DNA from: an uncultured Kofleriaceae bacterium
Lineage (GTDB): Bacteria > Myxococcota_A > Polyangia > Haliangiales > Haliangiaceae
DNA length: 64,000 bases
NCBI GenBank assembly: GCA_964617845.1
Contig: CAZUAR010000026.1
Location: 42,821-106,820 of the forward strand
Reading direction: 5' to 3'
Translations under genes and position numbers: made by a program
The notes under the pieces: model-generated
What the model saw: only the letters and a program-made list of their open reading frames with translations
Told to the model about the DNA's origin: nothing
The model's database searches: none
In this document: in pieces, positions 21,126 to 58,452 of the stretch
Position numbering within the stretch: the stretch's first letter is position 1
Layout of the letters: each line of letters starts with the position of its first letter

Positions 21126-24100
21126 CTAGAACTGCGTGCCGTACCCCGGCTTGCCGCGCTCCAGCAGGTTCTTCGCCTGATAGACCTGGCTCATCCAGAT
21201 GTCGTGCCACTTGCCCTTCGCGACCTGCTCGAGCAGCGCGTCGCCCTCGGCGGTGCGGCCGAGCGCGATCAGCGCCTGCGCCTTGCGGACGCGTGGCGTC
21301 GGGTTGGTCTGATCGATCACGATCGCTTGCTGCCAGTAGTCGAGCGCCTCGGCGACCTTGCCCTGCGCCTCGAACGACTGGGCGACGGTCATGTAGCCCG
21401 CGCCGCTCATCGGATCGCGCTCGATCACGCCGGAGAGCTGGCGCCACGCTTCGGCCTTGTTGCCGACCGCGAGCTGCAGCTCGCCGAGGATGCGATCGAT
21501 GTCGGTGTTGCCCGGATCGATCGCGCGCCACTTGGCACCCCAGATCATCGCGCGCTCGGTCGCGGCGACGCGCGCCGCGCCCGTGGACTCCATGGCGAGC
21601 TGCTTCGCGGTCGCGATGATCTGCGCCAGCTCGCCGCGCACCGTCGAGATCGAGACCGCCTCGTCGGCGGCGGCGGTCTGCGCGGCCTCGAGGTGCGCGA
21701 GCGCCTTGGCGGTGTGCCGCTGTTGCTGCGCGAACTGCGCCGCCAGCTTGTGGAGCGCGGCCGTGTGGTGGGTCTTGACCAGCTCGTCGACGAGGGCCTC
21801 GGCGAGCTGCGCCATGCCCCGCGCGAGCGCGAAGTTGGCGACGTCGACCTTGCGTTCGATGTCGTCGCCGGCGAGCTCGACCGCGCGCGCGAACACGGCG
21901 TTCGCGTCGGCGGGCTGCGACTGGACCTGCGCGGCGAGCGCCATCACGTGCTCGAAGCTTCCACCCGCGAGGACGCGGTCGCGCCAGCGCCCCCACAAGA
22001 GCTGCCAGCCCGCGTTCCCGCGGCGCGACTGCTGGATCGCGTAGGCGCCGTTGCCGAGGAACGGGGGAGCGGCGGTGAGATCGAGGTCGTCGATCATGAG
22101 CGCGATCATCTCGGCCGCCTGCTCGTATGCGCCGCGGTTGTACAGCGCGGTCGCGGCGTTCGAGCGCGCGACGTTCTTGAGGCGCCCGACGGCGACCGTG
22201 TTCCACGCCCGCGCGATGTCCGCGGGCTTGAGGTCGTAGCGGTTGCTCGTCATCGCCGCGCCGAGGATGCGGAACTGGAGCGCGCGCGTACCGAACGCGA
22301 CGATCTTGTCGACGGCGGCGGCGCTCTTCGACGCCGCGAACAGCGCGGTGACCTCGCGGTGCTGCCACAGCGCGCCGAGCACGCCGGTAGTGACCTGTGG
22401 CTTCATGCGCTCCGGGCGGGGGCTCTTGCCGTACGCGCGACCCGCGATCAGGTAGCGCGCGACCGGCGCGCCGGCGTGCGGTGCGAGCGCCTCCGCGAAC
22501 TGCTTGTCCGTCGATGACGTCGCGATGCCGCCGCTCGCGAGCACGATGTCTCCGATCTCGACGCCGCCGTTCTGGCGCAGCGCCTCGTAGATCGCGAACT
22601 GCGTCGCGCGGTCGCCCGTCGCAGCCACGCTCGCCAGGTGCTGGCGCTGCGCGCGCCGCCACGGCTCGCTGCCCGCGGTCTCCTTCTTCACGCGCTCCGC
22701 CCAGTAGGCGGGCATCCGCGTCGGCAGCTCGACGACGGTGCGCTGCGCCGCCGCCGCGCCATGCGCCCATGCGACCGAGTCGTCGATCGCCTGGCCGGTG
22801 AAGCCGACCGCCACGGCGTTACCCTGCATCTGCGCCGCGATCGGACCGATCGGGCCCCACGTCACGGACAGCAGCGTGTTCCCCTCGCCGTCGCGGATCG
22901 CGACGAGGTGATGGTTCGCGTCGAGCTCGAGCTCGAGCACGACGCTCGCCTTGCCGCTCGCGTACGACGACAGCGTGATGGTGCGCGGGCCCTTCGTCTT
23001 CACCTCGAACCAGCGCGCGTAGTGCGACGGGTCGGCGATCCAGATCGGGAGGTACGCGAACGCGAGCGCGATGTCGTCGCTCGTGATCGGCCGCGTGACG
23101 TCGAGGCCGAGCTCCGCGTAGCGCCGCGTGAACGTCGCGCCGTCGAACGACGCGGTCTCGAGGAGGTCCGCGTCCGTCGTGCGGCGCCACCCGAAGCGGC
23201 CCGACGAATCGACGCCGATCTCGAGCTCGCCCCAGCGATACACGCCGCTCGGCAGCGCGCCGCGTGCCTTCTCGAGCAGCGCCTTGGCGGCGGGCTCGAT
23301 CGGATGCACGAGCGCCGCCGCGGACTCCTCGAATTGCGAGCGCCAGAAGTCGCTCGCGTCGGGGAACAGCGCCGGGACGAACGCGCTGAGGTCGTCGAAC
23401 GCCATGTCGGACGGGTACGTGAACCGCTGCGGCATCATCGGTCCCGCCAGCGCGCTCTCGCCGCCGATGTTTTTGTCGAACGCCCAGCGCGTCGCGCCGG
23501 TCTTGAGCTCCTCCGTCGTGAGGCGCACGCGGCGCTCGCCGCTCTCGAGCGGAGTGTCGATGTTCGCGCGCACGGATTGCTCCGCGCGATCGACCTTGCG
23601 CGCCTTCGCGATCGCGCCGCGGAAGTTCTGCTCCTCGTCACCGTCGTCGAGAGGAATCGTGACGGCCTCCGCGATCGGCTGCTGCACCTGGAGGTCGAGC
23701 TGGCGCCGCGTCCGCGCGCCCGCAACGCGTCCGCCGCCACCCGCTCCGCGTCCGAAGCCCGCGCCCGAGCCGTGGCCGATGGTGCCGAAGCGGCCCGCGC
23801 CGAGCGTGATGCTGTTGTCGAGCCCGCCCCAGCCGCCGACGTCGCCGTTCGCGAATCCACCCGTGAAGTCCATGTTCGCGTACGAGTAGAAGATCTGCAG
23901 CGGCATGCGGAACAGCTCCGCGTCGTCGGTGACGTCGACCGGCTTGGTCTGCGCCATCGTGACGATCGGGATCGTCGCGGGCATCGCGTACGGCGCCCAC
24001 GTGTCGCCCTGCCCCTTGCGCACGCCGTACTTCGCGTACATCGCGTCGTTCTCGAGGACGATCAGCGACGTGTGCCGCGAGAGCAGGAAGTACTGCTTGC

Positions 24101-26438
24101 CGAGCTCGACGACCTCCTTGCGGATCGCCTCGTCGCGCTCGTTGCGCACTTGCTCCTCGGTCTTGCAGACCGCGGCGCCGGACGTGGCCGTCTCCGCGCA
24201 CGGCGGAGCGACGACCGGTTCGTGCTTCGCGAGCAAGCGCGCCGCGACGTGGCGGTGTGCCCACAGTCGCGGGAGGTAGCCCGCGTGCGCCGTGCCCGCA
24301 TCGAGCGCGATGCGCTGCTTCCACGCGGCACCGTTCGCGATGCCCGTGAGCTCGAGCGCCGCGGGCGTGCCGTCACCGGCGAGCTTCGCGACGAGCTCGA
24401 TCTCCTCGCCGTCGGTGATCTGCGGCGAGCGCAGGTACGACGTCGAAGGCACGAGCTGGCCGTTCGCGTCGACGAGCCGCGCTTCGATGCCGGTCGCGCG
24501 CGAGGTGTGAAGCGCGGCGACGAGGTCGAACGCACGCCAGCCGAGGTCGTCGGCGAGGTCCACCGTCGTCGTGTAGCCGCCGGTCGCGGCCGCGAGCGCT
24601 TCGAGCGTCTGCGTGTCCGCGCCATCGCCGACGCCGACACCGACGAAGTGCGCCTTGCCGGCGAGCTGCGTGCGCAGCGCGTCGAGCTTGCGCGTACCGC
24701 TCGTGACCACGCCGTCGCCGAGGTAGACGATCATCGCGTCGTCGGGGTTCGTCCCCGCGAGCAGCTTGGTCGCCGCGTCGAGCGCGACCGCGAAGTCCGT
24801 CGCACCGACGTCGCCCTCGCCCGCGAGGGCCTCGCGCAGCTTTTGGCGATCGATATCGAGCACGCGCGTCGGCGCGAGCTTCTGTCGCGCGGTGACATCG
24901 AACGCGATCACCGCGAGCTTGTCCTCCTCGTCGAGCTCGCGAACGAACGCGTCGACGAGGTCCTGCTGCGCGCGCCGCTCCATCGAGCCGCGCGAGGCGC
25001 TGACGTCGTCGAGGATGACCCACGTGCGGGGACGATACGCGCGCGCCTCCTTCGACAGCTCCGCCGGCGAGCGGACCATCAGGTAGCGAGCGCCGTCGAC
25101 GGTCTCGTGGACCACGGACGGCTTCTGCCGCGCGTCGCGCACCCGGAGCACGAGCGAATCGCCGATCGTGTCACCGTTCTTCCGGTACGTGACCTTCGCG
25201 TCCTCGCCCTTGCGCTCGACGGAGATCGGGTGACTCGTCGACGTGATCTCGCAGTTCGCGCAGCCCTTGATCGAGACATCGAACGCGACCTCGCCGACCG
25301 GCGCATCGATCTCCGGCAGCGGGACCGTGAGCGACCAGTCGCCGTACAGCTTCGCGATGCTCTGCGTGTACGCGAGCATCAAGCGCTTCTCCTGCCGCGC
25401 GGGCAACGGATAGACGCGCAGCGAGACCTTGCCCGTGCCTTCCCACTCGAGCAGCGCCGGATCGACGCGGCGATACACGAGCTCCTCGTAGATGCGGCGC
25501 GCGCGCATGCGCTCGACCACGGCCGACTCGGTCAGCTTGCCGTCGACGTACATCGCGAGGCGCTGGAGCGCGGCGTCCGACGGGATGCCGAACTTGTAGA
25601 CGCCCTCGAGCACGCGGTCCTGTGCGTTGAAGAACGTCTGATCGAGCGCGACGCGCGCGACCTGGTTGTCGATGACGATGTCGACGCCGAGCTTCTTCAG
25701 CGGCAGCGGATACTCCGCGCCGAACACGCCGTTGCGGACGCCCGGATCGCGGGCGAACAGCGTGCCGTTGCGCAGCGGGCGCACGTCGTGCTCCGCGCGC
25801 CGGCGCGCCTGCGCCGCCCACGACACGAGGTGCGAGAGCCGCGGCGCGGGTCCGCGCGTCGGCGGCCGCCCCGGCTCCGCCACGGCTTGCTCGCCCGCGT
25901 GGAGGACGACATCGCCGTCCTTCGTCGCGAGCTTCACCTGACCGCGAACCACCGCGGCCGTCGTGCGCTCGTCGCTGGCGTCGACGAGGAACCGCGTGCC
26001 GAGCACCTGGATCTGGCCGTGCTTCGTCTCGACGACGAAGGTGCCGTTACCGGGCGCGATGTCGAGCAGCGCCGCGCCGTCGACACGAACGCGTCGATCG
26101 GCGAGCACGGTCACCTTCGAGTCGCCCTCGGTGATCCACGAGGATCCATCGGCGAGCTTCGTGACGTTGTCGCTCGTCGTCGCGTCGCCGCCGCCGGCAT
26201 CGTCGCCGACAAACCGCGTGACGATGATCGCGGCCGCCGCGGCAGCCGCGAGGCCCAGGCCGACCGCGCGCAAGCCGCGCATCGGGGACTTCGCCGCGGC
26301 CTCCACGCCGTGCTTCGCGATCAGCTGCGCGCGCATGCGGGCACGCGCGTCGTCGGTGAGCTTCGGCGCTTCACCGCCGGACTCGAGGAGCGTCGAGACG
26401 TTCTGCTCGAGAACATCGTGGGACTTCGATTCGTTCAT
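21126..26438 (-). CDS. giant FecR-type anti-sigma factor fused to VIT + von Willebrand A + TPR domains (about 1770 aa)
   Basis: Cytoplasmic N-terminus (MNESKSHDVLEQ...) is followed by a TM helix (GLGLAAAAAAAIIV) and a FecR-like domain. A VIT-like block follows (YPLPLKKLGVDIVIDNQVARVALDQTFFNAQDRVLEGVYKFGIPSDAALQRLAMYVDGKL), then a vWA domain with MIDAS DVSASRGSM, a long helical region and C-terminal TPRs. The ATG overlaps the sigma-factor stop (ATGA). Start choice within the longer ORF 21126..26828 is inferred. Confidence 0.75.
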   Translation of the reverse strand: MNESKSHDVLEQNVSTLLESGGEAPKLTDDARARMRAQLIAKHGVEAAAKSPMRGLRAVGLGLAAAAAAAIIVTRFVGDDAGGGDATTSDNVTKLADGSSWITEGDSKVTVLADRRVRVDGAALLDIAPGNGTFVVETKHGQIQVLGTRFLVDASDERTTAAVVRGQVKLATKDGDVVLHAGEQAVAEPGRPPTRGPAPRLSHLVSWAAQARRRAEHDVRPLRNGTLFARDPGVRNGVFGAEYPLPLKKLGVDIVIDNQVARVALDQTFFNAQDRVLEGVYKFGIPSDAALQRLAMYVDGKLTESAVVERMRARRIYEELVYRRVDPALLEWEGTGKVSLRVYPLPARQEKRLMLAYTQSIAKLYGDWSLTVPLPEIDAPVGEVAFDVSIKGCANCEITSTSHPISVERKGEDAKVTYRKNGDTIGDSLVLRVRDARQKPSVVHETVDGARYLMVRSPAELSKEARAYRPRTWVILDDVSASRGSMERRAQQDLVDAFVRELDEEDKLAVIAFDVTARQKLAPTRVLDIDRQKLREALAGEGDVGATDFAVALDAATKLLAGTNPDDAMIVYLGDGVVTSGTRKLDALRTQLAGKAHFVGVGVGDGADTQTLEALAAATGGYTTTVDLADDLGWRAFDLVAALHTSRATGIEARLVDANGQLVPSTSYLRSPQITDGEEIELVAKLAGDGTPAALELTGIANGAAWKQRIALDAGTAHAGYLPRLWAHRHVAARLLAKHEPVVAPPCAETATSGAAVCKTEEQVRNERDEAIRKEVVELGKQYFLLSRHTSLIVLENDAMYAKYGVRKGQGDTWAPYAMPATIPIVTMAQTKPVDVTDDAELFRMPLQIFYSYANMDFTGGFANGDVGGWGGLDNSITLGAGRFGTIGHGSGAGFGRGAGGGGRVAGARTRRQLDLQVQQPIAEAVTIPLDDGDEEQNFRGAIAKARKVDRAEQSVRANIDTPLESGERRVRLTTEELKTGATRWAFDKNIGGESALAGPMMPQRFTYPSDMAFDDLSAFVPALFPDASDFWRSQFEESAAALVHPIEPAAKALLEKARGALPSGVYRWGELEIGVDSSGRFGWRRTTDADLLETASFDGATFTRRYAELGLDVTRPITSDDIALAFAYLPIWIADPSHYARWFEVKTKGPRTITLSSYASGKASVVLELELDANHHLVAIRDGEGNTLLSVTWGPIGPIAAQMQGNAVAVGFTGQAIDDSVAWAHGAAAAQRTVVELPTRMPAYWAERVKKETAGSEPWRRAQRQHLASVAATGDRATQFAIYEALRQNGGVEIGDIVLASGGIATSSTDKQFAEALAPHAGAPVARYLIAGRAYGKSPRPERMKPQVTTGVLGALWQHREVTALFAASKSAAAVDKIVAFGTRALQFRILGAAMTSNRYDLKPADIARAWNTVAVGRLKNVARSNAATALYNRGAYEQAAEMIALMIDDLDLTAAPPFLGNGAYAIQQSRRGNAGWQLLWGRWRDRVLAGGSFEHVMALAAQVQSQPADANAVFARAVELAGDDIERKVDVANFALARGMAQLAEALVDELVKTHHTAALHKLAAQFAQQQRHTAKALAHLEAAQTAAADEAVSISTVRGELAQIIATAKQLAMESTGAARVAATERAMIWGAKWRAIDPGNTDIDRILGELQLAVGNKAEAWRQLSGVIERDPMSGAGYMTVAQSFEAQGKVAEALDYWQQAIVIDQTNPTPRVRKAQALIALGRTAEGDALLEQVAKGKWHDIWMSQVYQAKNLLERGKPGYGTQF

Positions 26439-27067
26439 TGCGAAACCTCCGCAAGGTTGGCGGACATGGTCGTCGCCAAGGTGGAAAACGTGTCGCGGAA
26501 CGCTCGTCGCGCGCGGGCGAGGAGCGACTTGGTGGCGTCGACGGAGATGCCGAGCTCGGACGCGAGCGTCTCGAGGGTCTCTCCATCGACGTACTTGCGC
26601 GTGAGCGCCGTCTTGTACTGCTCGGGCAGGTGCGCGATGGCCATGTGGACGAGGTCGCGCGTCTCGGCGCGCTCGAGCACCTCGCCGGGCAGCGGACGCT
26701 CGGCCATCGCGGCGAACGTCTGCGCGAGCGTCGCGTCGATGCGCTCCCACGTCGATTGCAGCTCGTCGCTGCGCTTGTGCGCGCGCAGGTGATCGCGAAT
26801 GACGTTGCGCGAGAGCACGGTCAGCCACGTGCCGACCGATCCGCGATTCGCGTCGTAGTCCGCCTGGCGCGAGAGCGCGATCGTGAACGTCTCCTGGACG
26901 ATGTCCTCGGCCAGGGTGTGGTCGCGACCGACTCGATAGAACACGAACGCGTACAGGCCATCGACGTGGGCGTCGTAGAACCTGCCGATCGCGTCCTTGT
27001 CACCGGCCTTCGCGGCGCGCAGATCGGCGCCGGGGCCTGTTCGAAAGAGGCGGGCGAGAAAGCTCAT
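26435..27067 (-). CDS. ECF (sigma-70 family group 4) RNA polymerase sigma factor
   Basis: Region 2 (FYDAHVDGLYAFVFYRVGRDHTLAEDIVQETF) and region 4 HTH (YKTALTRKYVDGETLETLASELGISVDATKSLLARAR). Start inferred at MSFLARLF (ATG at 27067). Translationally coupled to the downstream anti-sigma gene. Confidence 0.85.
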   Translation of the reverse strand: MSFLARLFRTGPGADLRAAKAGDKDAIGRFYDAHVDGLYAFVFYRVGRDHTLAEDIVQETFTIALSRQADYDANRGSVGTWLTVLSRNVIRDHLRAHKRSDELQSTWERIDATLAQTFAAMAERPLPGEVLERAETRDLVHMAIAHLPEQYKTALTRKYVDGETLETLASELGISVDATKSLLARARRAFRDTFSTLATTMSANLAEVSQ

Positions 27068-30676: not shown

Positions 30677-30690
30677 CTCGCACCGATCGC

Positions 30691-48221: not shown

Positions 48222-50176
<1,955 letters not shown>

Positions 50177-50246
50177 TCCACGCGCTCTGCTCGTCGAAGA
50201 CGGCGTCCGTCGATCACGCGATCGCGGGCGCCGTTCTCGTTTTCGG

Positions 50247-50642
50247 CTACAGCGCTTTCTCGAGCTTCGCCTGCATCACGTCGGCATAGATGTAGCCGCT
50301 GCTCGACGAGCCGAAGTACGCCTTCCATGTGATGGTGCCGCCCTCGAAGGCGAAGCTCGTGTCCTCGGCCTTCGCAGGCGCGATCACGATCTTCTTCAGG
50401 GCGCCCTTGATCGCTTCCTTGCCGATATCGTCGACGGTGATCGATGCGAGCGCCTTCACGAGGTTGCCGAGCCCGTAGCTCTCGTTGGTGATGTACTGGA
50501 CGTCATCGAGGTTCTCGCTGAAGCCATCCCAGTCGATCTCGATCGCGCAGTCGAAGCCGAGCGTTCCGAAGACCTGCGACTTGAACGCCGGCTCGTCGGT
50601 CTTCTTTCGCTCCGCGGCCCACCGCTTTTCTGCCAAGCCCAT
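50247..50642 (-). CDS. hypothetical protein (131 aa)
   Basis: Protein-like ORF convergent with groEL; no family recognised. Confidence 0.5.
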   Translation of the reverse strand: MGLAEKRWAAERKKTDEPAFKSQVFGTLGFDCAIEIDWDGFSENLDDVQYITNESYGLGNLVKALASITVDDIGKEAIKGALKKIVIAPAKAEDTSFAFEGGTITWKAYFGSSSSGYIYADVMQAKLEKAL

Positions 50643-50702
50643 GTTCGTTGCCTTTCCCGAAGTCGTGCTTCGATGGACTTTTGAACGCGGGCGGCGCGAG
50701 CG

Positions 50703-51158
50703 TTATTGCAGATCGTCGGTGCAGTCGTGCTGCGCTTGCGCGCTCGCCTGCGTCTCGTGGCCGGTCGCCGGATCGCAGACGAAGTGCTCCGTGATGCACG
50801 CGTACGTCTGCTGGTTCGTCGCGGTGCGCTGCGCGTTGGGATCGTCGACGCGAATCACTTCCTTGAGGCACTGATCGCGCGCGGGCCCCTGCAAGTGCTC
50901 GCAGCACTGCTCCTGCACCTGCACGCCGCGCGCATACGTGTCGCTGCCTTTATTTCCTCCGCATGCAGCGATCACGCAAAGAAATGCGAATGCGGACAAC
51001 GCGATCCACCAGCGAGTAGGTGTGACTGAAGCGCGACGCTTGGGCGTGGTGCGCTGTTCACGGACCGCATCGGCGATCACCTGCTTTCCTTCGAGCAGCG
51101 CGTGCAAGTAGGCGTCATGCCGTACGTTCAACTTCCCCATTGCGCGGATGCGTCGCAA
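50703..51158 (-). CDS. Cys-rich putative lipoprotein (true start probably internal, before WWIALSAFAFLCVIAACGG)
   Basis: Internal lipobox-type signal peptide followed by a domain with about 8 Cys. Confidence 0.45.
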   Translation of the reverse strand: MRRIRAMGKLNVRHDAYLHALLEGKQVIADAVREQRTTPKRRASVTPTRWWIALSAFAFLCVIAACGGNKGSDTYARGVQVQEQCCEHLQGPARDQCLKEVIRVDDPNAQRTATNQQTYACITEHFVCDPATGHETQASAQAQHDCTDDLQ

Positions 51159-51206
51159 TTGCGGGGCCAGGTGCCCGGGGCCGCTGCTTGCAACTCATCG
51201 CGGTCG

Positions 51207-52787
51207 ATGCGGAGCAGGACGATCCTCGTGTGTGCCTTGGTGTCAGGCTGCGCGGGGCGATATCACACAGAATTCGTTGGCCACGGAACCGCCATCGTGC
51301 AACCGCGCACCGATCTCGCCGCGTCGGGACCGACGGACAACGCCCCGCTGTCGCGGAATGCGCCGTGGGCCGTCGGCGGCGGCATCCAGCTGCCCGCCGG
51401 CACCTACGACCTCGCGATGGCGTTCGATGTTCCGCGCGCGCAAGAAGTCGAGTGGAGCGTCTCGTGTCCCGGCGTGCAGCTCAGCGGCATCGCCGGCGAG
51501 ACCTTCGAGCGCTATCGCGAGCGGCGCCTCGCCGAGCTTCGCGCGCAGGCCGAGCGCGATCGCGAGCGCACCGCGGCGGTGACGAGCACCGTCGTCGGCG
51601 CGTTCGCTCCGCGCGTCGGCGTCACCGGTAACGCCGGTCCCGTCACCGTACAGGGCGACGTCGGCGTCAACGCGAACGCGGTCGGCCGCGCCGTCGCCAA
51701 CGAGACCGTCTCTCTCGACGTGATGCTCCCCGCGGGCGATGTCGGTCGCGGCCGCATCGCCAAGCACGTCCACGTCACGACGACGGGCGCCGGCATGTGC
51801 GTCGTCACCGCGATCACCGACGACGCGAACGTGCTCGGCACCTTCGAGGTCTCGCGCATCCGCGATCTCGACGCCGAAGCGCGCGTCGCGGTGATGTCGC
51901 AGCGCTCCGCGGCGATGTCGGTCCGCACGCGCCTGCAAGCGCGCCTCGTCGCGCACGGCGCCGACGCCGAGCTGCGCCAGCGCGAGGAGCGCGCCGCGAT
52001 CGAAGCGCGCTACGCCGCCGACGCGAAGGCGCACGCCGAGCTCGAGGTGAAGATGCGCGCCCGTGCCTCGCTCGAGGAGCAGTGGCACCGCGAGGCGCTG
52101 ATCGCGCGCTATCGCCTCCGCGGTCGCTGCGAGGGCCACGGCGCCGATCCGCATCGCCGCGAGCGCATCGCCGAGGAGCAGCGGCTCGCCACGGAAGCCG
52201 AAGCGCGGCTGCGCGTCGACATCGAGCAGCGCCGCCTCGACATGGCGCTGCACGCGCGCACCTCGCTGCGCTCGCGCTGGCTCCGCTTCGGCGCGATCCC
52301 TCGTCCGCCGATGCCCGAGCTCATCGCCGAGAATCCCGGCGACCCGCCGTTCGACGGCGCCGTGTGGATCGCCGGCAAGTGGACGTGGATGAACGGCCGC
52401 TGGGAGTGGACCGCGGGCGGCTGGTCCGATCCGGACGTGTTCACCGAGGTCGGCGGCGACGGGCCCGTCGAGGTCGTCGAGGACGGCAGCACGATCATCG
52501 ACGACGTGCTCGACGTCGGCGTCGGCGTCGGCGTCGGTGTCGGCGCGGGCGCGGTCCGCGAGCAGACGCGCGATCACCGCCGCGAGCCACGCCCGCAGAT
52601 GCGCGATCACCGCACGCCGCCTCGCGAGACCGTCCGCGATCATCGCGCCACGCCGACCTCGTGGACGCCCTCGAAGAGCGAGCCGCCGCCGGCCCGCGAC
52701 AACAAGCGCGACGACGAGGAGCGCGAGGACAAGCGGAACGACAACGATCGCGGCGGCGGCCGCATGCTCCGCGATCACCGTCGCTAG
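51207..52787 (+). CDS. putative lipoprotein with one WxxGxW repeat and a C-terminal RDHR-repeat tail
   Basis: Signal/lipobox MRSRTILVCALVSGCAG; coiled-coil-rich middle; motif VWIAGKWTWMNGRWEWTAGGW; tail with RDHR repeated four times. Confidence 0.55.
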   Translation: MRSRTILVCALVSGCAGRYHTEFVGHGTAIVQPRTDLAASGPTDNAPLSRNAPWAVGGGIQLPAGTYDLAMAFDVPRAQEVEWSVSCPGVQLSGIAGETFERYRERRLAELRAQAERDRERTAAVTSTVVGAFAPRVGVTGNAGPVTVQGDVGVNANAVGRAVANETVSLDVMLPAGDVGRGRIAKHVHVTTTGAGMCVVTAITDDANVLGTFEVSRIRDLDAEARVAVMSQRSAAMSVRTRLQARLVAHGADAELRQREERAAIEARYAADAKAHAELEVKMRARASLEEQWHREALIARYRLRGRCEGHGADPHRRERIAEEQRLATEAEARLRVDIEQRRLDMALHARTSLRSRWLRFGAIPRPPMPELIAENPGDPPFDGAVWIAGKWTWMNGRWEWTAGGWSDPDVFTEVGGDGPVEVVEDGSTIIDDVLDVGVGVGVGVGAGAVREQTRDHRREPRPQMRDHRTPPRETVRDHRATPTSWTPSKSEPPPARDNKRDDEEREDKRNDNDRGGGRMLRDHRR

Positions 52788-52852
52788 CTCCGCCCGCCCA
52801 GAAGCAGCGTGGCTCCTCACCGCGGGCACGGCGGCCCGACGCGACCGATTGA

Positions 52853-54682
52853 CTAGCCGGCGATCTTGCCCATCGCCTCGTACTCGAGCCTCGCCGCGCG
52901 CTCGAGGTGTGCGGTTCCGATCACGGCGCCCTCGCCCGCCGCCAGAAAGGCCGCGCGAACTACCGCGTTCTTGATGTAGCCGCCGCTCATCTCGAAGCTC
53001 GCCGCGAGCTTGGCGACGTTGATGTTCGCCGCTTGCGCCGCTCTCGCCGGAATCATCGTCCTCCACATCAGGGCGCGTTGCTCCTCGTCCGGCATTGGTA
53101 CCCTCAGGTGAAACGCGAGGCGCCGCTGAAAGGCAGGGTCGATCGCCTTCTCGTGGTTCGTCGTCAGGATCGAGATGCCCGAGAACTGCTCCATGCGTTG
53201 GAGCAGGTAGTTGACCTCGAGGTTCGCGTAGCGATCGTTACTCGTCTTCACGTCCGTTCGCCTGCCGAACAGCGAGTCCGCCTCGTCGAACAGCAGGATC
53301 GCGTGGCCGCTCTCAGCAGCGTCGAACAACGCGGCGAGCTGCTTCTCGGTCTCGCCAATGTACTTCGAGACGAGCTTGGACAGGTCGACTTGATACAGGT
53401 CCAGACCGAGCTCTTTGGCCAAGAGCCCCGCGATCATCGTCTTGCCGGTGCCCGGGGGGCCAGACAGCAGTACGCTCATCCCTAGCCCGCGCCCGATTTT
53501 GTCCGCAAAGCCCCAGTCGTCCATCACCTTCCCGCGGAACCGCACACGGGCGATCAGCTCCAGCAGCACGTCCTGCTGATCGACGGGTAGAACGAGATCC
53601 TCCCAGGTCTGCTTCGTCTCGATGCGTGTCGCGACACCCGCCAGCTGCCGCTCGAGCAGCCCGCGCAGTGCACGATGTACGTTGGCGACCGCGACACTCC
53701 GCTGGCCCGCCATCGCCATCGCGCTACGCGCTGCAATCTCGATCGTGCGCGCAGAGATCGCGTAGCGACGCGCGCACTCCGCTACCACATCGCGACTCGC
53801 TCCGACGAGCGCATCCTCCCACAGGACGGCACGATGCGCTGCGTCCGGCAACGCGACCACGATCGGCACCACGCTGCGCTCGGTGTTCCATACGCCGACA
53901 GCTGTGGCGGTCGCGAACACGCGGGCCTCGCTCGCCAGGAGCTCGCGCTCGATCAGTACGGCCTTAACCGCGTCCACGTCGCGGAGCACGATGACCGCGT
54001 CATGGAGCAGCGCTTCTCGCACGATAGCGCGCAGCACGCGGTCGTCGTCGTCGACCAGTCGCCGGCAATCGACGGCGAGCATCGCGACTCCGTTCGTGAA
54101 CGCGCGCAGCCGCGCCATCCGTCCGCTGCCATTCGCTCCGACGGCGACGACGAAGTCGCTCGTGACATCGCGTGCGCTTCGGCCGAGCTCGAGCGATGCG
54201 CAATCGCGCAGCCTGGGATCCAGGTCCATGCGTCCACGCGCGAGCTCGAGCACGCGATCGCTGGCGCGAACAGGGCGACGGAAGCGCGGCAGTCGTCGAT
54301 CGTCGGGTGTCTCGATGAGGCCATGTCGCGCGAGCTTCCCGAGCCCGATCTCGTCGACGCCCGTCAGCAGCTCGATGACCTGCGCGTTGAGCTCGTGCAC
54401 GCCGTGCGCAGCCAGAACCTGCGATCCCGCGGCGACATCCGGGAAGAGCTCGGTACAGGCGAGGATCCAGAGCGTTTCGAGCTCCGCATTCGAGAGTCCC
54501 ACTCGCGACGCGAGGACCGCGAGCGGTGAAGTGACATCGGCGACATCAAACTCGTTTGGATCGGCGACCCCGTCGATAATCTCGCCGGGTAGCCATCCCT
54601 CGCTACGACCGAGATTGATGAGGCGGCCCAGCTTCGTGAGGGTCCAGCGACGGCGCACGTCGAGCAACATGTGCCCACCCAT
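52853..54682 (-). CDS. AAA+ ATPase (classic-clade C-terminal AAA domain, degenerate N-terminal domain)
   Basis: Walker A LLSGPPGTGKTM, Walker B ILLFDEADSL, sensor-1 ILTTNH, arginine fingers PAFQRR, and an AAA lid. The roughly 380 aa N-terminal region resembles a degenerate AAA-like domain. Confidence 0.85.
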   Translation of the reverse strand: MGGHMLLDVRRRWTLTKLGRLINLGRSEGWLPGEIIDGVADPNEFDVADVTSPLAVLASRVGLSNAELETLWILACTELFPDVAAGSQVLAAHGVHELNAQVIELLTGVDEIGLGKLARHGLIETPDDRRLPRFRRPVRASDRVLELARGRMDLDPRLRDCASLELGRSARDVTSDFVVAVGANGSGRMARLRAFTNGVAMLAVDCRRLVDDDDRVLRAIVREALLHDAVIVLRDVDAVKAVLIERELLASEARVFATATAVGVWNTERSVVPIVVALPDAAHRAVLWEDALVGASRDVVAECARRYAISARTIEIAARSAMAMAGQRSVAVANVHRALRGLLERQLAGVATRIETKQTWEDLVLPVDQQDVLLELIARVRFRGKVMDDWGFADKIGRGLGMSVLLSGPPGTGKTMIAGLLAKELGLDLYQVDLSKLVSKYIGETEKQLAALFDAAESGHAILLFDEADSLFGRRTDVKTSNDRYANLEVNYLLQRMEQFSGISILTTNHEKAIDPAFQRRLAFHLRVPMPDEEQRALMWRTMIPARAAQAANINVAKLAASFEMSGGYIKNAVVRAAFLAAGEGAVIGTAHLERAARLEYEAMGKIAG

Positions 54683-54918
54683 CGCAACGCACGAGGTCGG
54701 GTTGCGTGCATTTTCGCGGGACGCAGATCCCCAAGCTGCGTGACCGATCGGCCGTGCGGTCCGAGAGTCTGTGCCATACGAGTCTCGTTGCTGCTCTTGA
54801 TCGCGGCCAGCCGAGTCGATGGCACTGCGCTGTTCCTCTTGCTCCGGCGTTTTCGTTAGCTCGCCGCAACCGAGATGCCACTCTTGACCGCGTTCCGCCT
54901 ACCCCGCAGAGTCGGAGC

Positions 54919-55458
54919 ATGCCGCGACCGGTGTTCTTGCTGCTTCTGCTCGCCGCATGCCGTACGCAGACGGAAGCACCAGCAGCGGCATCGAGAACGG
55001 CGAACTTTTCCACCACCTCACTTCCGTGCTTGATCCCGGCAGGGACTGCGCCACGTGCCGGAGCGTCTCCTGCAGCTCTCACGATGAGCGGGCCGGATTG
55101 GTGCCTTCCGGTTCTCGACACCTTTCTCGCCAAGAATCCCGACTCGCGCATCGTCACGGTGCTGCCAATCGAGTTTCGTCTCGAGAACGAAGAGCCTGGA
55201 GTGCGCGATCAGGGAACACAGGAGCTGTTGGTCGTTCTCGCAGACGCGGGTGACTGGCCTCGTGCCCGAGAGCTCCAGGCCTCGCTCATTAGCTGCTCCT
55301 CCGTAGGAAGAGGCCCCAAGGCGTGTGGATCGGCGATCCTCGGTTCGGCCGCTCTGATCCCGCAGACGGTGTTCTGGGTGCCGTTGTCACGGATGCACGA
55401 CACGCCGCAGGCGGAAGCCGGAACTCGATACGTGATCATGGGTTGGTTGAAGTCTTGA
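54919..55458 (+). CDS. hypothetical lipoprotein in lower-GC segment
   Basis: MPRPVFLLLLLAAC lipobox. Local GC is visibly lower than the flanks. Confidence 0.4.
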   Translation: MPRPVFLLLLLAACRTQTEAPAAASRTANFSTTSLPCLIPAGTAPRAGASPAALTMSGPDWCLPVLDTFLAKNPDSRIVTVLPIEFRLENEEPGVRDQGTQELLVVLADAGDWPRARELQASLISCSSVGRGPKACGSAILGSAALIPQTVFWVPLSRMHDTPQAEAGTRYVIMGWLKS

Positions 55459-55461
55459 GCA

Positions 55462-56904
55462 CTATCCGTCCTTCGTTGGCTCGAAGCGCGGGCCCACCAT
55501 TTGGTTGGTTGTCTTGAAAAGCTCGTCGCGCCGTCTACGCCATGTCGCTTCCTCGCTCTCGCCATAACTGCGCGCTGAAACGATATCGCGACTGCTTTCT
55601 ATGAACGGAATCGCGGCTGGATGCGCGTGTGCGTGCGCGATGCCCAATCCACGCCCCGCCGCTTCGTTGTAGCTGGGAAGAACTGCGACCTCGCGTATGG
55701 CTTCAGCCTTCGCCACAACCATCTCGGCAAATGGGAGTGCCGCAGGAATCGCCGCGAGCTTGCGTCGACTTCCTTCGTACTCTTTGGGTACCGCCGCACC
55801 GACGCTGGTTCCAAGGTCGCTGTACGCACTTCTCCTCTCACCGACAGCAACGAGCACCAGATCGATCTGTGCGCCGAGAGCGTACGTCGCCTCGACCACT
55901 TGCACGAGCCCACTTCGAACCGCAGTGCGCGTGATCTCGTCCAGGTAGGTCGCGCGTTCCACTTCCGCCCTCGTTCTCTCGGCCCCAGCGGCGGCGAGTT
56001 CTGCGTCTCTCGCGTGACTCATGACCTCGCCTGCCAGCTCGCCGACCTTCTCGATCGCGTCGCCGACTCCCCCTTGCGCTAGATGCCCGATCATCGCGAA
56101 GAAGCTCGCTGTACGCTGGATGACCGTACGCGTCGACTCGAGCTCCGACCGTAGCGCGTCGATCTTTGCCTGTGCGCTGGCCTCGCGCTTTGTGGCGTCG
56201 TTTGCGCTCAGAAGCAGGACCGACGACGAGTAGCCAAGTTGCGCCACCTCGAGTCTGCTGACCGCAGACGCAACAAAGCGCAATGCCGAGGAGAGCTTGC
56301 GATCAGCTGCGTACACGCTCCTTCGCGTGACGCCAACGTTCTGCGCCTGCCCTTCCTCGACGGCCGATGAAACCCCATCAATCGCCAGGCGATCCTCGGG
56401 AGTTAGCGCGAGCTGATTGTCAGGATGGAACAGCCGATCGAGGCGCTCTCCTCCTTGTTCCGGCAACTGCACCCGGTCGGTCATACTTCCAAGGTCTCCG
56501 TCGACGTTCGGCGGCAAGTGAAAGTCCATGGCTTGCGCCTGAGGGTCTTGTTTGACGTTCGTGAACGCGTTGACGTGATGCTGAACGCGCTCGTGCGTGG
56601 ACCGCATTTCGGCAACCTTCACGGCGAACGCGCGCCAGTACCTGTTTCGACGGAGATAGTCCGGATCGCCAGCAACGAACCAGTGCGGAAGGTTTGGTTC
56701 CACCGCCATCGCGCGCGCAGGTATTGGCAAACGCAACGCGCGATCGACGCTGCCCCAAACGATCGGCACCTCATCCGGTCGCTTGACGTCCTCCTCTACC
56801 GGTCCGGGACGTATCGCTTCGTTCGCCTCTTCGAAGCGAGCTACGCTTCTGACGGTTTCGATCTTCCGATCTCGTTCGAGTTGCTCATCGACAAAGTCGC
56901 CCAT
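55462..56904 (-). CDS. hypothetical cytoplasmic protein (480 aa), alpha-helical, no recognised family
   Basis: Only the 3' 1.44 kb of the 55462..58512 ORF has protein-like composition, starting at MGDFVDEQLERDRK. The rest of that ORF is an Arg-rich artefact. Confidence 0.5.
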   Translation of the reverse strand: MGDFVDEQLERDRKIETVRSVARFEEANEAIRPGPVEEDVKRPDEVPIVWGSVDRALRLPIPARAMAVEPNLPHWFVAGDPDYLRRNRYWRAFAVKVAEMRSTHERVQHHVNAFTNVKQDPQAQAMDFHLPPNVDGDLGSMTDRVQLPEQGGERLDRLFHPDNQLALTPEDRLAIDGVSSAVEEGQAQNVGVTRRSVYAADRKLSSALRFVASAVSRLEVAQLGYSSSVLLLSANDATKREASAQAKIDALRSELESTRTVIQRTASFFAMIGHLAQGGVGDAIEKVGELAGEVMSHARDAELAAAGAERTRAEVERATYLDEITRTAVRSGLVQVVEATYALGAQIDLVLVAVGERRSAYSDLGTSVGAAVPKEYEGSRRKLAAIPAALPFAEMVVAKAEAIREVAVLPSYNEAAGRGLGIAHAHAHPAAIPFIESSRDIVSARSYGESEEATWRRRRDELFKTTNQMVGPRFEPTKDG

Positions 56905-56954
56905 GGACGTGCCTCGTCGTGCGAACCGCGCAACGGTTGCGCGTTTTCTTCGAG

Positions 56955-57281
56955 CTAGTCGTCTTTCGCCGAGCACTTCTCGGCTTCGGTGCCCGTCTTC
57001 GCGTTCGTCATGCACTCGATCTGCTCGTCGTTGTTCGCCGAGCTGCACTGGTTCACGCACATCTCGACGCCTTGCTCGAGGTAGTTCGTGAACTCCGAGA
57101 GCTTCTTCTTCTTCAGGTTCTCGCGCTCGGCCTCGGGGGCGGCCGCGATCTCCGCGTCCGTCTTCTCCCAGTAGACCAGCGTCGCGTAGTTGCGGCACGC
57201 CGTCTCGCACTTGTTGCGGTCGCCCTTGCAGCCGAGGGCAGCGGTGGCGAGAGCGAGGACAAACAGCGCGGTGCGGGCCAT
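56955..57281 (-). CDS. small Cys-rich lipoprotein (108 aa)
   Basis: MARTALFVLALATAALGC lipobox with 7 further Cys. Lies 50 bp upstream of, and co-directional with, the 480-aa gene. Confidence 0.5.
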   Translation of the reverse strand: MARTALFVLALATAALGCKGDRNKCETACRNYATLVYWEKTDAEIAAAPEAERENLKKKKLSEFTNYLEQGVEMCVNQCSSANNDEQIECMTNAKTGTEAEKCSAKDD

Positions 57282-57321
57282 GGCCGTGCGTACCACGACG
57301 GGAACGCGATAGGCTGCGGCC

Positions 57322-58452
57322 GTGTGGCGCATGCTGCCCGCGCTCGTGGTGCTCGCCGTCGGCGGGGCGGCGAGTGGTGCGCCCGTGGTCGTGACGCTCG
57401 AGGGCGGCGCCGAAGGCGACACCAATGTCCAGCGCGTCGAGACGGGGCCGGGCCTGGGCACGGCGCGGATCGCCGCGGGCGTTGTGCGCGTCGGAGGGAA
57501 GCTCGACAAGCGCGATCGGCTGTGGGGCGGCGGGTATCAGCTGATCGCCGGCGCGCTGGCGCGAGCGGTCGCGGATCCGGTGGCGTCGACGGAGAACGTG
57601 GCGCTGTTGACGGCCGAGGCGCGGTATCTGCGGCCGCTCGAGGGGCGCGGCGTGTCGCTGGGCGCGGGGGTCGTGGCGGCGGATGCGGTGCCGCTGACCG
57701 ACGAGATCGGTGCGCGGACGTTTCGCAATCTGGGTGCCGACGCGCTGCTGGTGATGGACGCGAGCGAGGCGACCCACCTGTCCTTCGGGTTCGGCGGGCG
57801 AAGCTTCGTGTACAAGGAGAACAGCGAGTTCGACTGGAACGGCGTGGCGGCGACCGCGCGGCTCGACTCGACGCTGTGGCAGCCGAGCGGCGGCACGCGC
57901 AGCGTCGAGCTCGCGGTGATCGCGGGGTTCGAGCTGCGCGACTACGACTCGGTCGCGCTCGCGAACATCTGCGAGCCGGGCGCGGACGTGAACGATGGCT
58001 GCTCGGCGGCGACGTCGAGGCAGCGACGCGATCGGCTGCAGCGGATCGGTGCGGAGGTGACGTGGATCGGGCGCGTGGTGGCGGCGGCTGGATATCAGGT
58101 GACGGTGATCGACTCGAACAGCTACGGGCAGAGCCTGGTGCGGCACAAGGCGACCGCGAGCGCGACGACGACGCTGTGGAAAGGCGTGTACGGGACGCTG
58201 CTCGGGCAGCTGCAGATCGATCAGTACCTCGACGGGCTGGTGATCAAGACGGACACCCAGCGCAGCGAGTTCACGAGCCTCGACGACGAGAATCGCAGCT
58301 CGCTGCAGATCCGGATCGGCCGGCCGGTCTCGGACGCGTGGTCGATCGAGGCGCGCGGCGCGATCTGGCGGAACCTCGGCGGTGACGTGAGCGAGGCGGA
58401 CGTCGAGTTCCGGCGCGCGTCGATCTACGTCGGCGCGATCTACAGCCGCTGA
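57322..58452 (+). CDS. secreted hypothetical protein (beta-rich, possible outer-membrane protein)
   Basis: Signal peptide MWRMLPALVVLAVGGAASGAP and alternating-hydrophobic beta-strand-like pattern. Divergent from the Cys-rich lipoprotein gene. Confidence 0.5.
   Translation: MWRMLPALVVLAVGGAASGAPVVVTLEGGAEGDTNVQRVETGPGLGTARIAAGVVRVGGKLDKRDRLWGGGYQLIAGALARAVADPVASTENVALLTAEARYLRPLEGRGVSLGAGVVAADAVPLTDEIGARTFRNLGADALLVMDASEATHLSFGFGGRSFVYKENSEFDWNGVAATARLDSTLWQPSGGTRSVELAVIAGFELRDYDSVALANICEPGADVNDGCSAATSRQRRDRLQRIGAEVTWIGRVVAAAGYQVTVIDSNSYGQSLVRHKATASATTTLWKGVYGTLLGQLQIDQYLDGLVIKTDTQRSEFTSLDDENRSSLQIRIGRPVSDAWSIEARGAIWRNLGGDVSEADVEFRRASIYVGAIYSR

Follow-up and report, generated by a model that had tools for sequence, protein, structure and literature searches.

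What is an ATPase of the kind that belongs to extracellular contractile injection systems (eCIS) doing in a three-gene islet together with a helical protein and a lipoprotein? The question is raised by a 64-kb stretch of contig CAZUAR010000026.1 from an uncultured Kofleriaceae bacterium, the whole of which is hereafter called the window. The islet comprises genes for a AAA+ ATPase, a lipoprotein of 179 amino acids (aa) and a cytoplasmic protein of 480 aa (Table 1); the open reading frames (ORFs) of the ATPase, the 480-aa protein and a neighboring 108-aa lipoprotein lie where an original prediction, made from the letters of the DNA, had placed them. Our favored reading, to which we assign a probability of roughly 55%, is that the islet is an orphan eCIS cargo module, with an ATPase as its dedicated loader, a polymorphic helical protein as candidate toxin and a lipoprotein as candidate immunity protein, on a strain-variable islet that is exchanged by recombination. 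The corresponding eCIS particle, phage-tail-like and of the PVC/Afp type, would be encoded elsewhere in the genome.

The ATPase, the helical protein and the lipoprotein

A profile of the ATPase family was aligned with hhalign to five ATPases from eCIS loci at a probability of 100% (E = 7.8e-97; residues 50-609 against 64-659, 549 columns), with the homology spanning the N domain and both AAA modules, D1 and D2. This bears out the original prediction, which had likened the layout of the protein to that of the ATPases of injection machineries. In a tblastn search of 72,556 plasmids the best matches lay in eCIS loci in all five contexts inspected, namely those of Rhodococcus pWB1 (ATPase, Pvc16, sheath, tube, LysM, gpD, PAAR, gp25 and baseplate), Nostoc pn3, Mycobacterium JS623, Deinococcus grandis and a Serratia plasmid of the Afp/PVC type (VgrG/Pvc8, gp25, tape measure, ATPase and Pvc16). 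The eCIS ATPases scored 189-264 bits against the islet ATPase (tblastn), as opposed to about 119 bits for the best solved Cdc48/VAT chains and 121 bits for the IetA model of PADLOC, both of which match the AAA core only. The D2 module shares 48% identity over 255 aa with the ATPase of an eCIS locus in a cyanobacterium, and 45-52% with eCIS-locus ATPases overall.

The probable true start of the ATPase is Met5 at 54670, at the equivalent of which its relatives begin, giving a protein of 605 aa with an N domain (residues ~1-165), D1 (~170-350) and D2 (~355-609). A single Pfam AAA match covers residues 404-529 (3.6e-30), and the Pfam WHD was not detected in the N domain. The C-terminal AAA module is intact and the N-terminal half degenerate, as had been predicted. 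The motif G-x-x-G-x-G-R of D1 is invariant across the seven relatives of the ATPase. In Pvc15, the Walker A lysine of D1 is likewise replaced by arginine, a Walker B acid and a second region of homology are missing, and D2 is the only active ATPase (PMC11495950). The likeness to Pvc15, Afp15 and Alg15 (Cis15) thus extends from the N domain/D1/D2 layout, the lysine-to-arginine change and the missing catalytic Walker B glutamate of D1 to a classic-clade AAA D2 with a DEAD Walker B, sensor 1 and two arginine fingers. Because the homology to eCIS ATPases is full-length and the motifs of D1 and D2 follow the pattern of Pvc15, the protein can be placed firmly in the Cis15 family by sequence and architecture, not by genomic context. 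From the same motifs D1 is predicted to be inactive and D2 to be active.

The islet ATPase differs from these proteins in that it does not adjoin Pvc16/cap, tape-measure, sheath or tube genes, lying instead in a three-gene islet between unrelated native genes, and in that its N-terminal half, in which the WHD was not detected, has few close relatives. Of 5.8 billion proteins searched, seven are close relatives of this half, and a search of 185,579 species genomes gave a single locus, in a Kofleriaceae metagenome-assembled genome (MAG; locus L009 below). The N domain and D1 are also the most diverged part of the ATPase gene.

A PADLOC scan of the region, which had been proposed as a check on the original prediction, yielded only a generic AAA match to IetA. 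The D2 core matches IetA models (PADLOC, 1.7e-35; NCBIfam IteA, 1.2e-32); however, IetA is a single-domain protein of ~370 aa. An IetAS defense system was rejected, as the NCBIfam IteA score of 113.5 bits compares with a cutoff of 510 and the islet encodes no IetS-like serine protease.

For the 480-aa protein the original prediction had found no recognizable family. This held for Pfam, NCBIfam, PADLOC and PHROGs, none of which gave a match. Word-indexed searches returned three to four matches (in one run, the protein itself and two relatives), but an exhaustive profile search of 1.84 billion representatives overturned this result with 101 cluster representatives, 66 of them at E <= 1e-10, and the idea of an orphan protein was discarded. 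By profile comparison the 480-aa protein belongs to an unnamed family of about 100 clusters. The matches cover residues ~80-475, and many of the matched proteins carry long N-terminal extensions.

The protein has no signal peptide, no cysteine and no transmembrane segment, and consists of a probably flexible, acidic N-terminal stretch of 40 residues followed by the motif RPDEVPIVW and a long helical bundle. [quoted passage not shown] The putative flexibility of this stretch is read from the pLDDT (below 50 at residues 1-9, 22-26 and 28-37, with a low-confidence helix at 8-29). The fold is a generic helical bundle that matches no specific solved fold and no Pfam toxin family.

An eCIS cargo protein has been described as comprising a disordered N-terminal loading signal, an optional DUF4157 domain and a C-terminal effector, with the Cis15 ATPase acting in loading (bioRxiv 10.64898/2026.05.27.728243), and DUF4157 is a marker of eCIS toxins in which the toxin domain is C-terminal (PMC8213781, PMC3482391). 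In 27 of 71 scanned members of the 480-aa family, PF13699 (eCIS_core, DUF4157) lies N-terminal to the homologous region, which itself reaches the C-terminus. One member, P0072, is encoded in a complete cyanobacterial eCIS locus (L022), where it is accompanied by genes for tube (two), sheath, Pvc16_N and a WHD+AAA ATPase, and in another locus (L020) an ATPase with a D2 52% identical to that of the window lies immediately upstream of the member P0081. The motif R-x-D-E-x-P-[IV]-x-W (residues 42-50) recurs in the long relatives, there just after the DUF4157 domain and a linker; its Trp50 is conserved in at least 90% of the 71 family members, and the motif could be a processing or docking site. 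The N-terminal 40 residues, modeled at low confidence, may be comparable to the published disordered loading signals (bioRxiv 10.64898/2026.05.27.728243).

The islet protein resembles DUF4157 ('PVC-metallopeptidase') cargo, such as Cgo1 and Cgo2 of AlgoCIS and the eCIS-associated toxins (EATs) of Geller et al. (PMC8213781; bioRxiv 10.64898/2026.05.27.728243), in its homology to the toxin position of 27 DUF4157 proteins, and in its putatively flexible N-terminus and adjoining Cis15-type ATPase. The likeness is limited in that the window copy has no DUF4157 domain, no toxin family in Pfam corresponds to its helical domain, and a lipoprotein partner is conserved beside it, whereas immunity genes are not identifiable for most eCIS toxins (PMC8213781, PMC3482391). 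On the strength of the domain fusions and gene contexts, we regard the assignment of the 480-aa protein as a putative eCIS cargo as well supported.

Other searches with this protein gave little. There was no tblastn match among the plasmids; a DUF4157-bearing relative matched plasmids through its DUF4157 domain only. A narrow-alignment scan of metagenomes gave two short contigs, and a scan of viral contigs gave no match. A tape-measure-like effector (Tme/Sle1) was considered and set aside, there being no PHROG tape-measure match and no transmembrane hairpin in the protein.

The original prediction had paired the 480-aa gene with the gene for the 108-aa Cys-rich lipoprotein. That pairing turned out to be positional only, and the 108-aa lipoprotein is absent beside the family member in a Kofleriaceae MAG (L021). 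The conserved partner is the 179-aa lipoprotein, which the original prediction had left undescribed. The two genes are paired, usually convergently, in ten loci: besides the window these are L003 (a metagenomic contig), L005, L006 (GCA_020054605.1), L007 (twice), L009, and the more distant L014, L021 and L023 (a soil-metagenome scaffold). The identities of lipoprotein and cargo to the window copies are 66% and 67% in L003, 47% and 62% in L005, and 31-34% and 30-31% in L006 and L009. In L021 (3649-7654), a 464-aa family member and the lipoprotein have a 524-aa gene of the HNH-endonuclease type as a neighbor.

The lipoprotein has no match in Pfam, NCBIfam, PADLOC or PHROGs. A signal peptide and lipobox cysteine are found in every full-length homologue among the eight aligned. 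The mature chain has cysteines at residues 37, 62, 126 and 136 and conserved GTQ[ED]L and WP.A motifs; C126 and C136 are invariant over the eight homologues, and the other two cysteines appear conserved by eye and are not listed as invariant. These features point to a conserved, co-diverging neighbor of the 480-aa protein that is exported and probably disulfide-bonded, and that may be its cognate immunity protein.

Islet limits and cassette exchange

Two genomes with an empty site, L017 (GCA_050183415.1) and L018 (GCA_050248555.1), were identified through a protein encoded at the right end of the window. By blastn, L017 aligns to positions 64000-56957 at 98.9% and to 52786-51564 at 99.3% identity, and in place of the islet it holds a spacer of 217 bp between the two stop codons, without similarity to anything in the islet. 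The gene order is the same in L018: in both genomes the 108-aa gene directly adjoins the gene for a 561-aa lipoprotein on the left. Since the 99%-identical flanks in L017 and L018 enclose no islet, the islet is a presence/absence polymorphism among near-identical genomes. The 108-aa protein and the 376-aa protein beyond it are 100% identical in the islet-less genomes, and positions 56957-58452, which carry their genes, are native DNA. The island limits originally predicted, 52853-58452, had therefore mixed accessory and native genes, and the ATPase, which had been taken for a flank of the island, lies within the presence/absence unit. An integrase-type genomic island was rejected: no direct repeats were found flanking the islet, Pfam detected no integrase among its genes, and the empty-site spacer is unrelated to it. 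At either edge the islet ends at the stop codon of one of two convergent native genes, which suggests that it was gained and lost by homologous recombination in the flanks.

The cargo, lipoprotein and ATPase genes are adjacent in the window, L003, L006, L007, L009 and the distant L023. In L006 and L009 the trio occupies the same site, between flanks that are 87-97% identical to those of the window at the amino acid level. Nucleotide similarity between the window and L009 runs over 49220-52790 and 52853-54666, is lost at 54667-56933 and resumes at 56934; the flanks are 83-87% identical, and across the gap the proteins are 30-34% identical. In contrast, L006 and L009 share a background of 92-96% identity and a cassette of 98-99.7%, as against 83-87% in the first 1.2 kb of the ATPase gene, which encodes the N domain, D1 and the start of D2. 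Between these two loci the helical protein has 0.043 synonymous substitutions per site (dS) and the lipoprotein 0.016, compared with 0.15-0.39 for the flanking genes. The N-terminus of the L003 ATPase is an outgroup, 50-55% identical to all the others, and the L003 cassette is nonetheless the closest to that of the window (67% and 66%).

By these comparisons the helical protein and the lipoprotein behave as an exchangeable cassette within the genus. Synteny, which was to separate core from island genes, gave a mixed answer: orthologues are present at the site in L006 and L009 and absent from the closest relatives, and the cassette is ~30% identical where the flanks are ~90%. Pervasive positive selection as the source of the divergence was not supported. 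The ratio of nonsynonymous to synonymous substitution rates (dN/dS) within allele classes is 0.09-0.15 for the cargo, and 0.09-0.16 when cargo and ATPase are taken together; between allele classes the synonymous sites are saturated. The picture is one of old, purified allele classes that move between lineages, with no runaway positive selection.

In L023 (962-5527) the trio consists of a DUF4157-bearing cargo of 681 aa, a lipoprotein homologue of 175 aa and an ATPase of 663 aa that is 40% identical to that of the window and has GPNGVGR in D1; here the lipoprotein gene overlaps the ATPase gene by 4 bp.

The drop in GC content that had drawn attention to the region is real. Sliding-window and codon-position profiles were computed, and in 1-kb intervals the GC fraction at 54.5-57.0 kb is 0.614-0.630 (61.4-63.0%), the minimum of the window (mean 0.685, standard deviation 0.026). 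Comparable dips, to 62-64%, are seen at 6.5 kb, 17.5-19 kb and 47-50.5 kb, for example over the CorA gene and the GroEL region, and a dip of this depth is by itself no island marker in the window. GC at third codon positions (GC3) is 0.68 in both the 480-aa and the 179-aa genes, 0.82 in the ATPase gene, 0.92 in the 376-aa gene and 0.94 in the 108-aa gene. In every relative examined, including lineages with the pair at the same locus, the 480-aa gene and its lipoprotein partner have a GC3 of 0.64-0.78. Since low GC3 is common to all alleles and lineages, low GC was rejected as the sign of a single recent insertion of foreign DNA; it is a property of the cassette. Of the horizontal acquisition originally proposed, the accessory nature of the low-GC stretch stands, since it is missing from L017 and L018, and the reading of its composition as the mark of a single recent insertion falls.

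The proposed module and its alternatives

If the islet is an orphan cargo module, the ATPase, a two-ring AAA+ protein of the Pvc15/Afp15 family with a predicted inactive D1 and active D2, would bind the putatively flexible N-terminus of the 480-aa protein and unfold or stabilize it. Going by published work on Pvc15 and Alg15, it would next feed this protein into the tube lumen of an eCIS particle encoded elsewhere. The cargo would then act as a toxin on the cell envelope, and the exported lipoprotein would be the cognate immunity protein that guards sister cells from incoming particles; a candidate toxin made in the cytoplasm and paired with an exported protein typically indicates an effector that acts on the envelope and is countered by immunity in the periplasm, from which we infer these roles. 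Some eCIS toxins do have immunity genes or act in the periplasm. The module is gained, lost and swapped, apparently by homologous recombination in the conserved flanks, given that it is absent in conspecifics, ~30% identical between congeners (flanks ~90%) and nearly identical in two other lineages. Such a pattern would befit a polymorphic toxin-immunity locus used in kin discrimination. The pair shares with type VI effector-immunity pairs whose immunity protein is a periplasmic lipoprotein, and presumably with the SitA/SitI loci of myxobacteria, a cytoplasmic candidate toxin beside an exported lipoprotein, conserved adjacency with co-divergence, allelic replacement of the cassette, presence/absence in close relatives and a GC content below that of the flanks. 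It differs from them in having no Rhs, PAAR, VgrG or lipoprotein-toxin architecture, and in that its genes are convergent and do not form one operon.

Several observations weigh against this account. By Pfam, neither the 64-kb window nor the 10 kb past its right end contains a gene for a sheath, tube, baseplate, spike or cap, as the original prediction had noted of the vicinity, so that within this span the ATPase is not encoded in an eCIS gene cluster. PF13699 is absent from the 480-aa protein of the window and from its neighbors (Pfam). The scaffold L023 has no eCIS structural gene in the next 10 kb, known on one side only, which holds Tol-Pal genes. In L021 there is no ATPase within -3.6/+10 kb of the pair, and the pair can thus exist without a dedicated loader nearby. 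Moreover, the cargo and lipoprotein genes are convergent and not co-transcribed, which is unusual for effector-immunity pairs. Because the trio recurs away from structural eCIS genes in at least two distant lineages (window/L006/L009 and L023), we keep in view, as the main alternative, a self-contained conflict system that has ceased to depend on a contractile particle. The unfoldase of Pvc15 type might then restrain or activate the helical protein, for instance upon phage infection or contact with non-kin; the helical protein might damage the membrane from inside (abortive infection) or leave by another route, with the lipoprotein as sensor or immunity protein. The islet is small, strain-variable and polymorphic, like defense islets, and D2 matches the PADLOC IetA models at 1.7e-35. 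That match, however, is to the generic AAA core, at 113 bits against the NCBIfam cutoff of 510 and without an IetS-like protease; the full-length homology of the ATPase is to eCIS ATPases, members of the 480-aa family sit in real eCIS loci, the L023 flank is known for 10 kb on one side only, and no known defense model in PADLOC matches the helical protein or the lipoprotein. We consider such a system unlikely. A more specific form of it, in which the particle has been left behind and a Pvc15-type unfoldase has been exapted to arm or export a new helical envelope toxin, with the lipoprotein as immunity protein or sensor, on a mini-islet moving among Myxococcota for kin discrimination or phage defense, seems to us slightly less likely still.

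The cargo module has also to be set against readings that give the ATPase little or no role. Type VI effector-immunity pairs classically combine a cytoplasmic protein that lacks a signal peptide with an adjacent periplasmic lipoprotein, and L021 has the pair without an ATPase; the helical protein and the lipoprotein might accordingly form an effector-immunity pair of another secretion route (type VI or the outer-membrane exchange of myxobacteria), with the ATPase a mere neighbor. This is improbable, in that Pfam shows no PAAR, VgrG, MIX or Rhs in or beside the 480-aa gene, eCIS_core is the only known domain fused to family members, and of the seven loci with sufficient flank, six (the window, L003, L006, L007, L009 and L023) have the ATPase next to the pair and one, L021, does not. 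More improbable again is a decaying remnant of a former eCIS locus with no present function. The occurrence of an ATPase and a cargo-like gene without machinery, and of a helical protein that has lost the DUF4157 domain of its relatives, would fit such a remnant; yet all three ORFs and the catalytic motifs of D2 are intact, cargo and ATPase show the low dN/dS given above, the trio is kept in lineages whose proteins are 30-40% identical, and a nearly identical cassette is found in two diverged lineages.

A cargo module of this kind would touch on two open problems of eCIS biology, namely the way in which cargo is selected and loaded, and the reason why immunity genes are missing for most antibacterial eCIS toxins. 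Combining in one exchangeable unit a dedicated loader, a conserved exported partner and a cargo whose family is unnamed, the islet would offer a compact system in which to study loader-cargo specificity and eCIS immunity. It also suggests that eCIS cargo repertoires may vary between strains by way of small orphan islets far from the structural locus, in which case surveys centered on structural loci would miss them. The presence/absence and cassette swaps within one Kofleriaceae-like genus suggest that the islet functions in competition among close relatives, a familiar theme where social myxobacteria are concerned. Should the trio prove to work in the absence of a particle, it would represent a conflict system of a new type.

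Surroundings of the islet

The positions of the islet, its genes and motifs and its native flanks are collected in Table 1.

Table 1. Features of the islet and its flanks, in window coordinates
Feature	Position	Strand	Basis or remark
Strain-variable islet, ~4.17 kb (ATPase, 179-aa lipoprotein, 480-aa helical protein)	52787..56956		Bounded by stop codons of two convergent native genes
Afp15/Pvc15 (Cis15)-family AAA+ ATPase, 609-aa ORF	52853..54682	-	Pfam AAA, hhalign, contexts of best matches
D1 degenerate Walker A GANGSGR (Arg replaces catalytic Lys)	54119..54139	-	Motif coordinates
D1 Walker-B-like VIVLRDVD, without catalytic Glu	53972-53995	-	Motif coordinates
D2 catalytic motif block	53120..53461	-	Motif coordinates
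D2 Walker A GPPGTGKT	53438-53461	-	
D2 pore loop KYIG	53354-53365	-	
D2 Walker B LLFDEAD	53276-53296	-	
D2 sensor 1 ILTTN	53156-53170	-	
D2 arginine fingers FQRR	53120-53131	-	
Divergent intergenic region, 236 bp, between ATPase and lipoprotein genes	54683..54918	.	Gene coordinates
179-aa lipoprotein, conserved partner of helical protein, candidate immunity protein	54919..55458	+	Conserved adjacency, alignment
Lipobox LAAC of 179-aa lipoprotein	54949-54960	+	
480-aa cytoplasmic all-helical protein, candidate eCIS-type cargo/toxin	55462..56904	-	Profile search, AlphaFold2
Motif RPDEVPIVW, residues 42-50 of 480-aa protein	56755-56781	-	
Native left flank, outside islet: 561-aa (or shorter) lipoprotein, Arg/Asp/His-rich tail	51102..52787	+	99.5% identical in L017 up to stop codon
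Native right flank, outside islet: 108-aa Cys-rich lipoprotein	56955..57281	-	GC3 0.94; 100% identical in L017, L018

The divergent intergenic region presumably holds the promoters of the ATPase and 179-aa lipoprotein genes. It has no nucleotide similarity to L009 and no match to the sigma-70 consensus, the promoter and terminator scan being uninformative at the 68% GC of this myxobacterium. A GC-rich hairpin of 7 bp lies at 56927-56943, in the 50-bp gap between the 108-aa and 480-aa genes, with a T-run on the plus strand only, and is thus a terminator for neither gene.

The 376-aa, 561-aa and 108-aa proteins have no match in Pfam, NCBIfam or PADLOC, and the 108-aa protein has none in PHROGs. 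In L007 (1-4599) the ATPase is flanked by two cassettes, in the order helical-gene end, lipoprotein, ATPase, second 482-aa gene and second lipoprotein; directly upstream of the second copy, 21 aa from the 3' end of the gene for the 108-aa lipoprotein persist. Because of this remnant, the 3' end of the 108-aa gene may travel with the cassette or serve as a recombination anchor. On the other side of the islet, the left-flank lipoprotein has 67-70% aa identity to its counterparts in L006 and L009, as against 87-97% for the other flank genes, and its Arg/Asp/His-rich tail contains a 33-nt tandem repeat at 52557-52622. Between the ATPase gene and the left-flank gene, L006 (7744-9819) and L009 (11846-13922) carry three extra genes that are absent from the window and the empty-site genomes; they encode a zinc-ribbon protein (261/270 aa), a membrane protein (214/217 aa) and a cyclic nucleotide monophosphate (cNMP)-binding protein (197 aa).

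By Pfam, the rest of the window encodes Kup and Kdp potassium transport, two-component systems, CorA, a helicase, a giant VIT/VWA protein, a vault-protein-like gene, kinases, PanC, GroEL and a lipase-like protein, and the 10 kb past its right end hold TPR, FHA, kinase and competence genes. A FadL-type (Toluene_X) gene is among the Pfam marks of L001. The giant protein, of 1957 aa with FecR, VIT, VWA and TPR domains, is encoded at 21126-26999 on the minus strand, just upstream of the region of the vault-like gene. The latter (30677-33166, plus strand) has an 829-aa product with matches to MVP_shoulder (9.4e-16) and Vault_3 (5.2e-09), and is followed by a Ser/Thr kinase gene.

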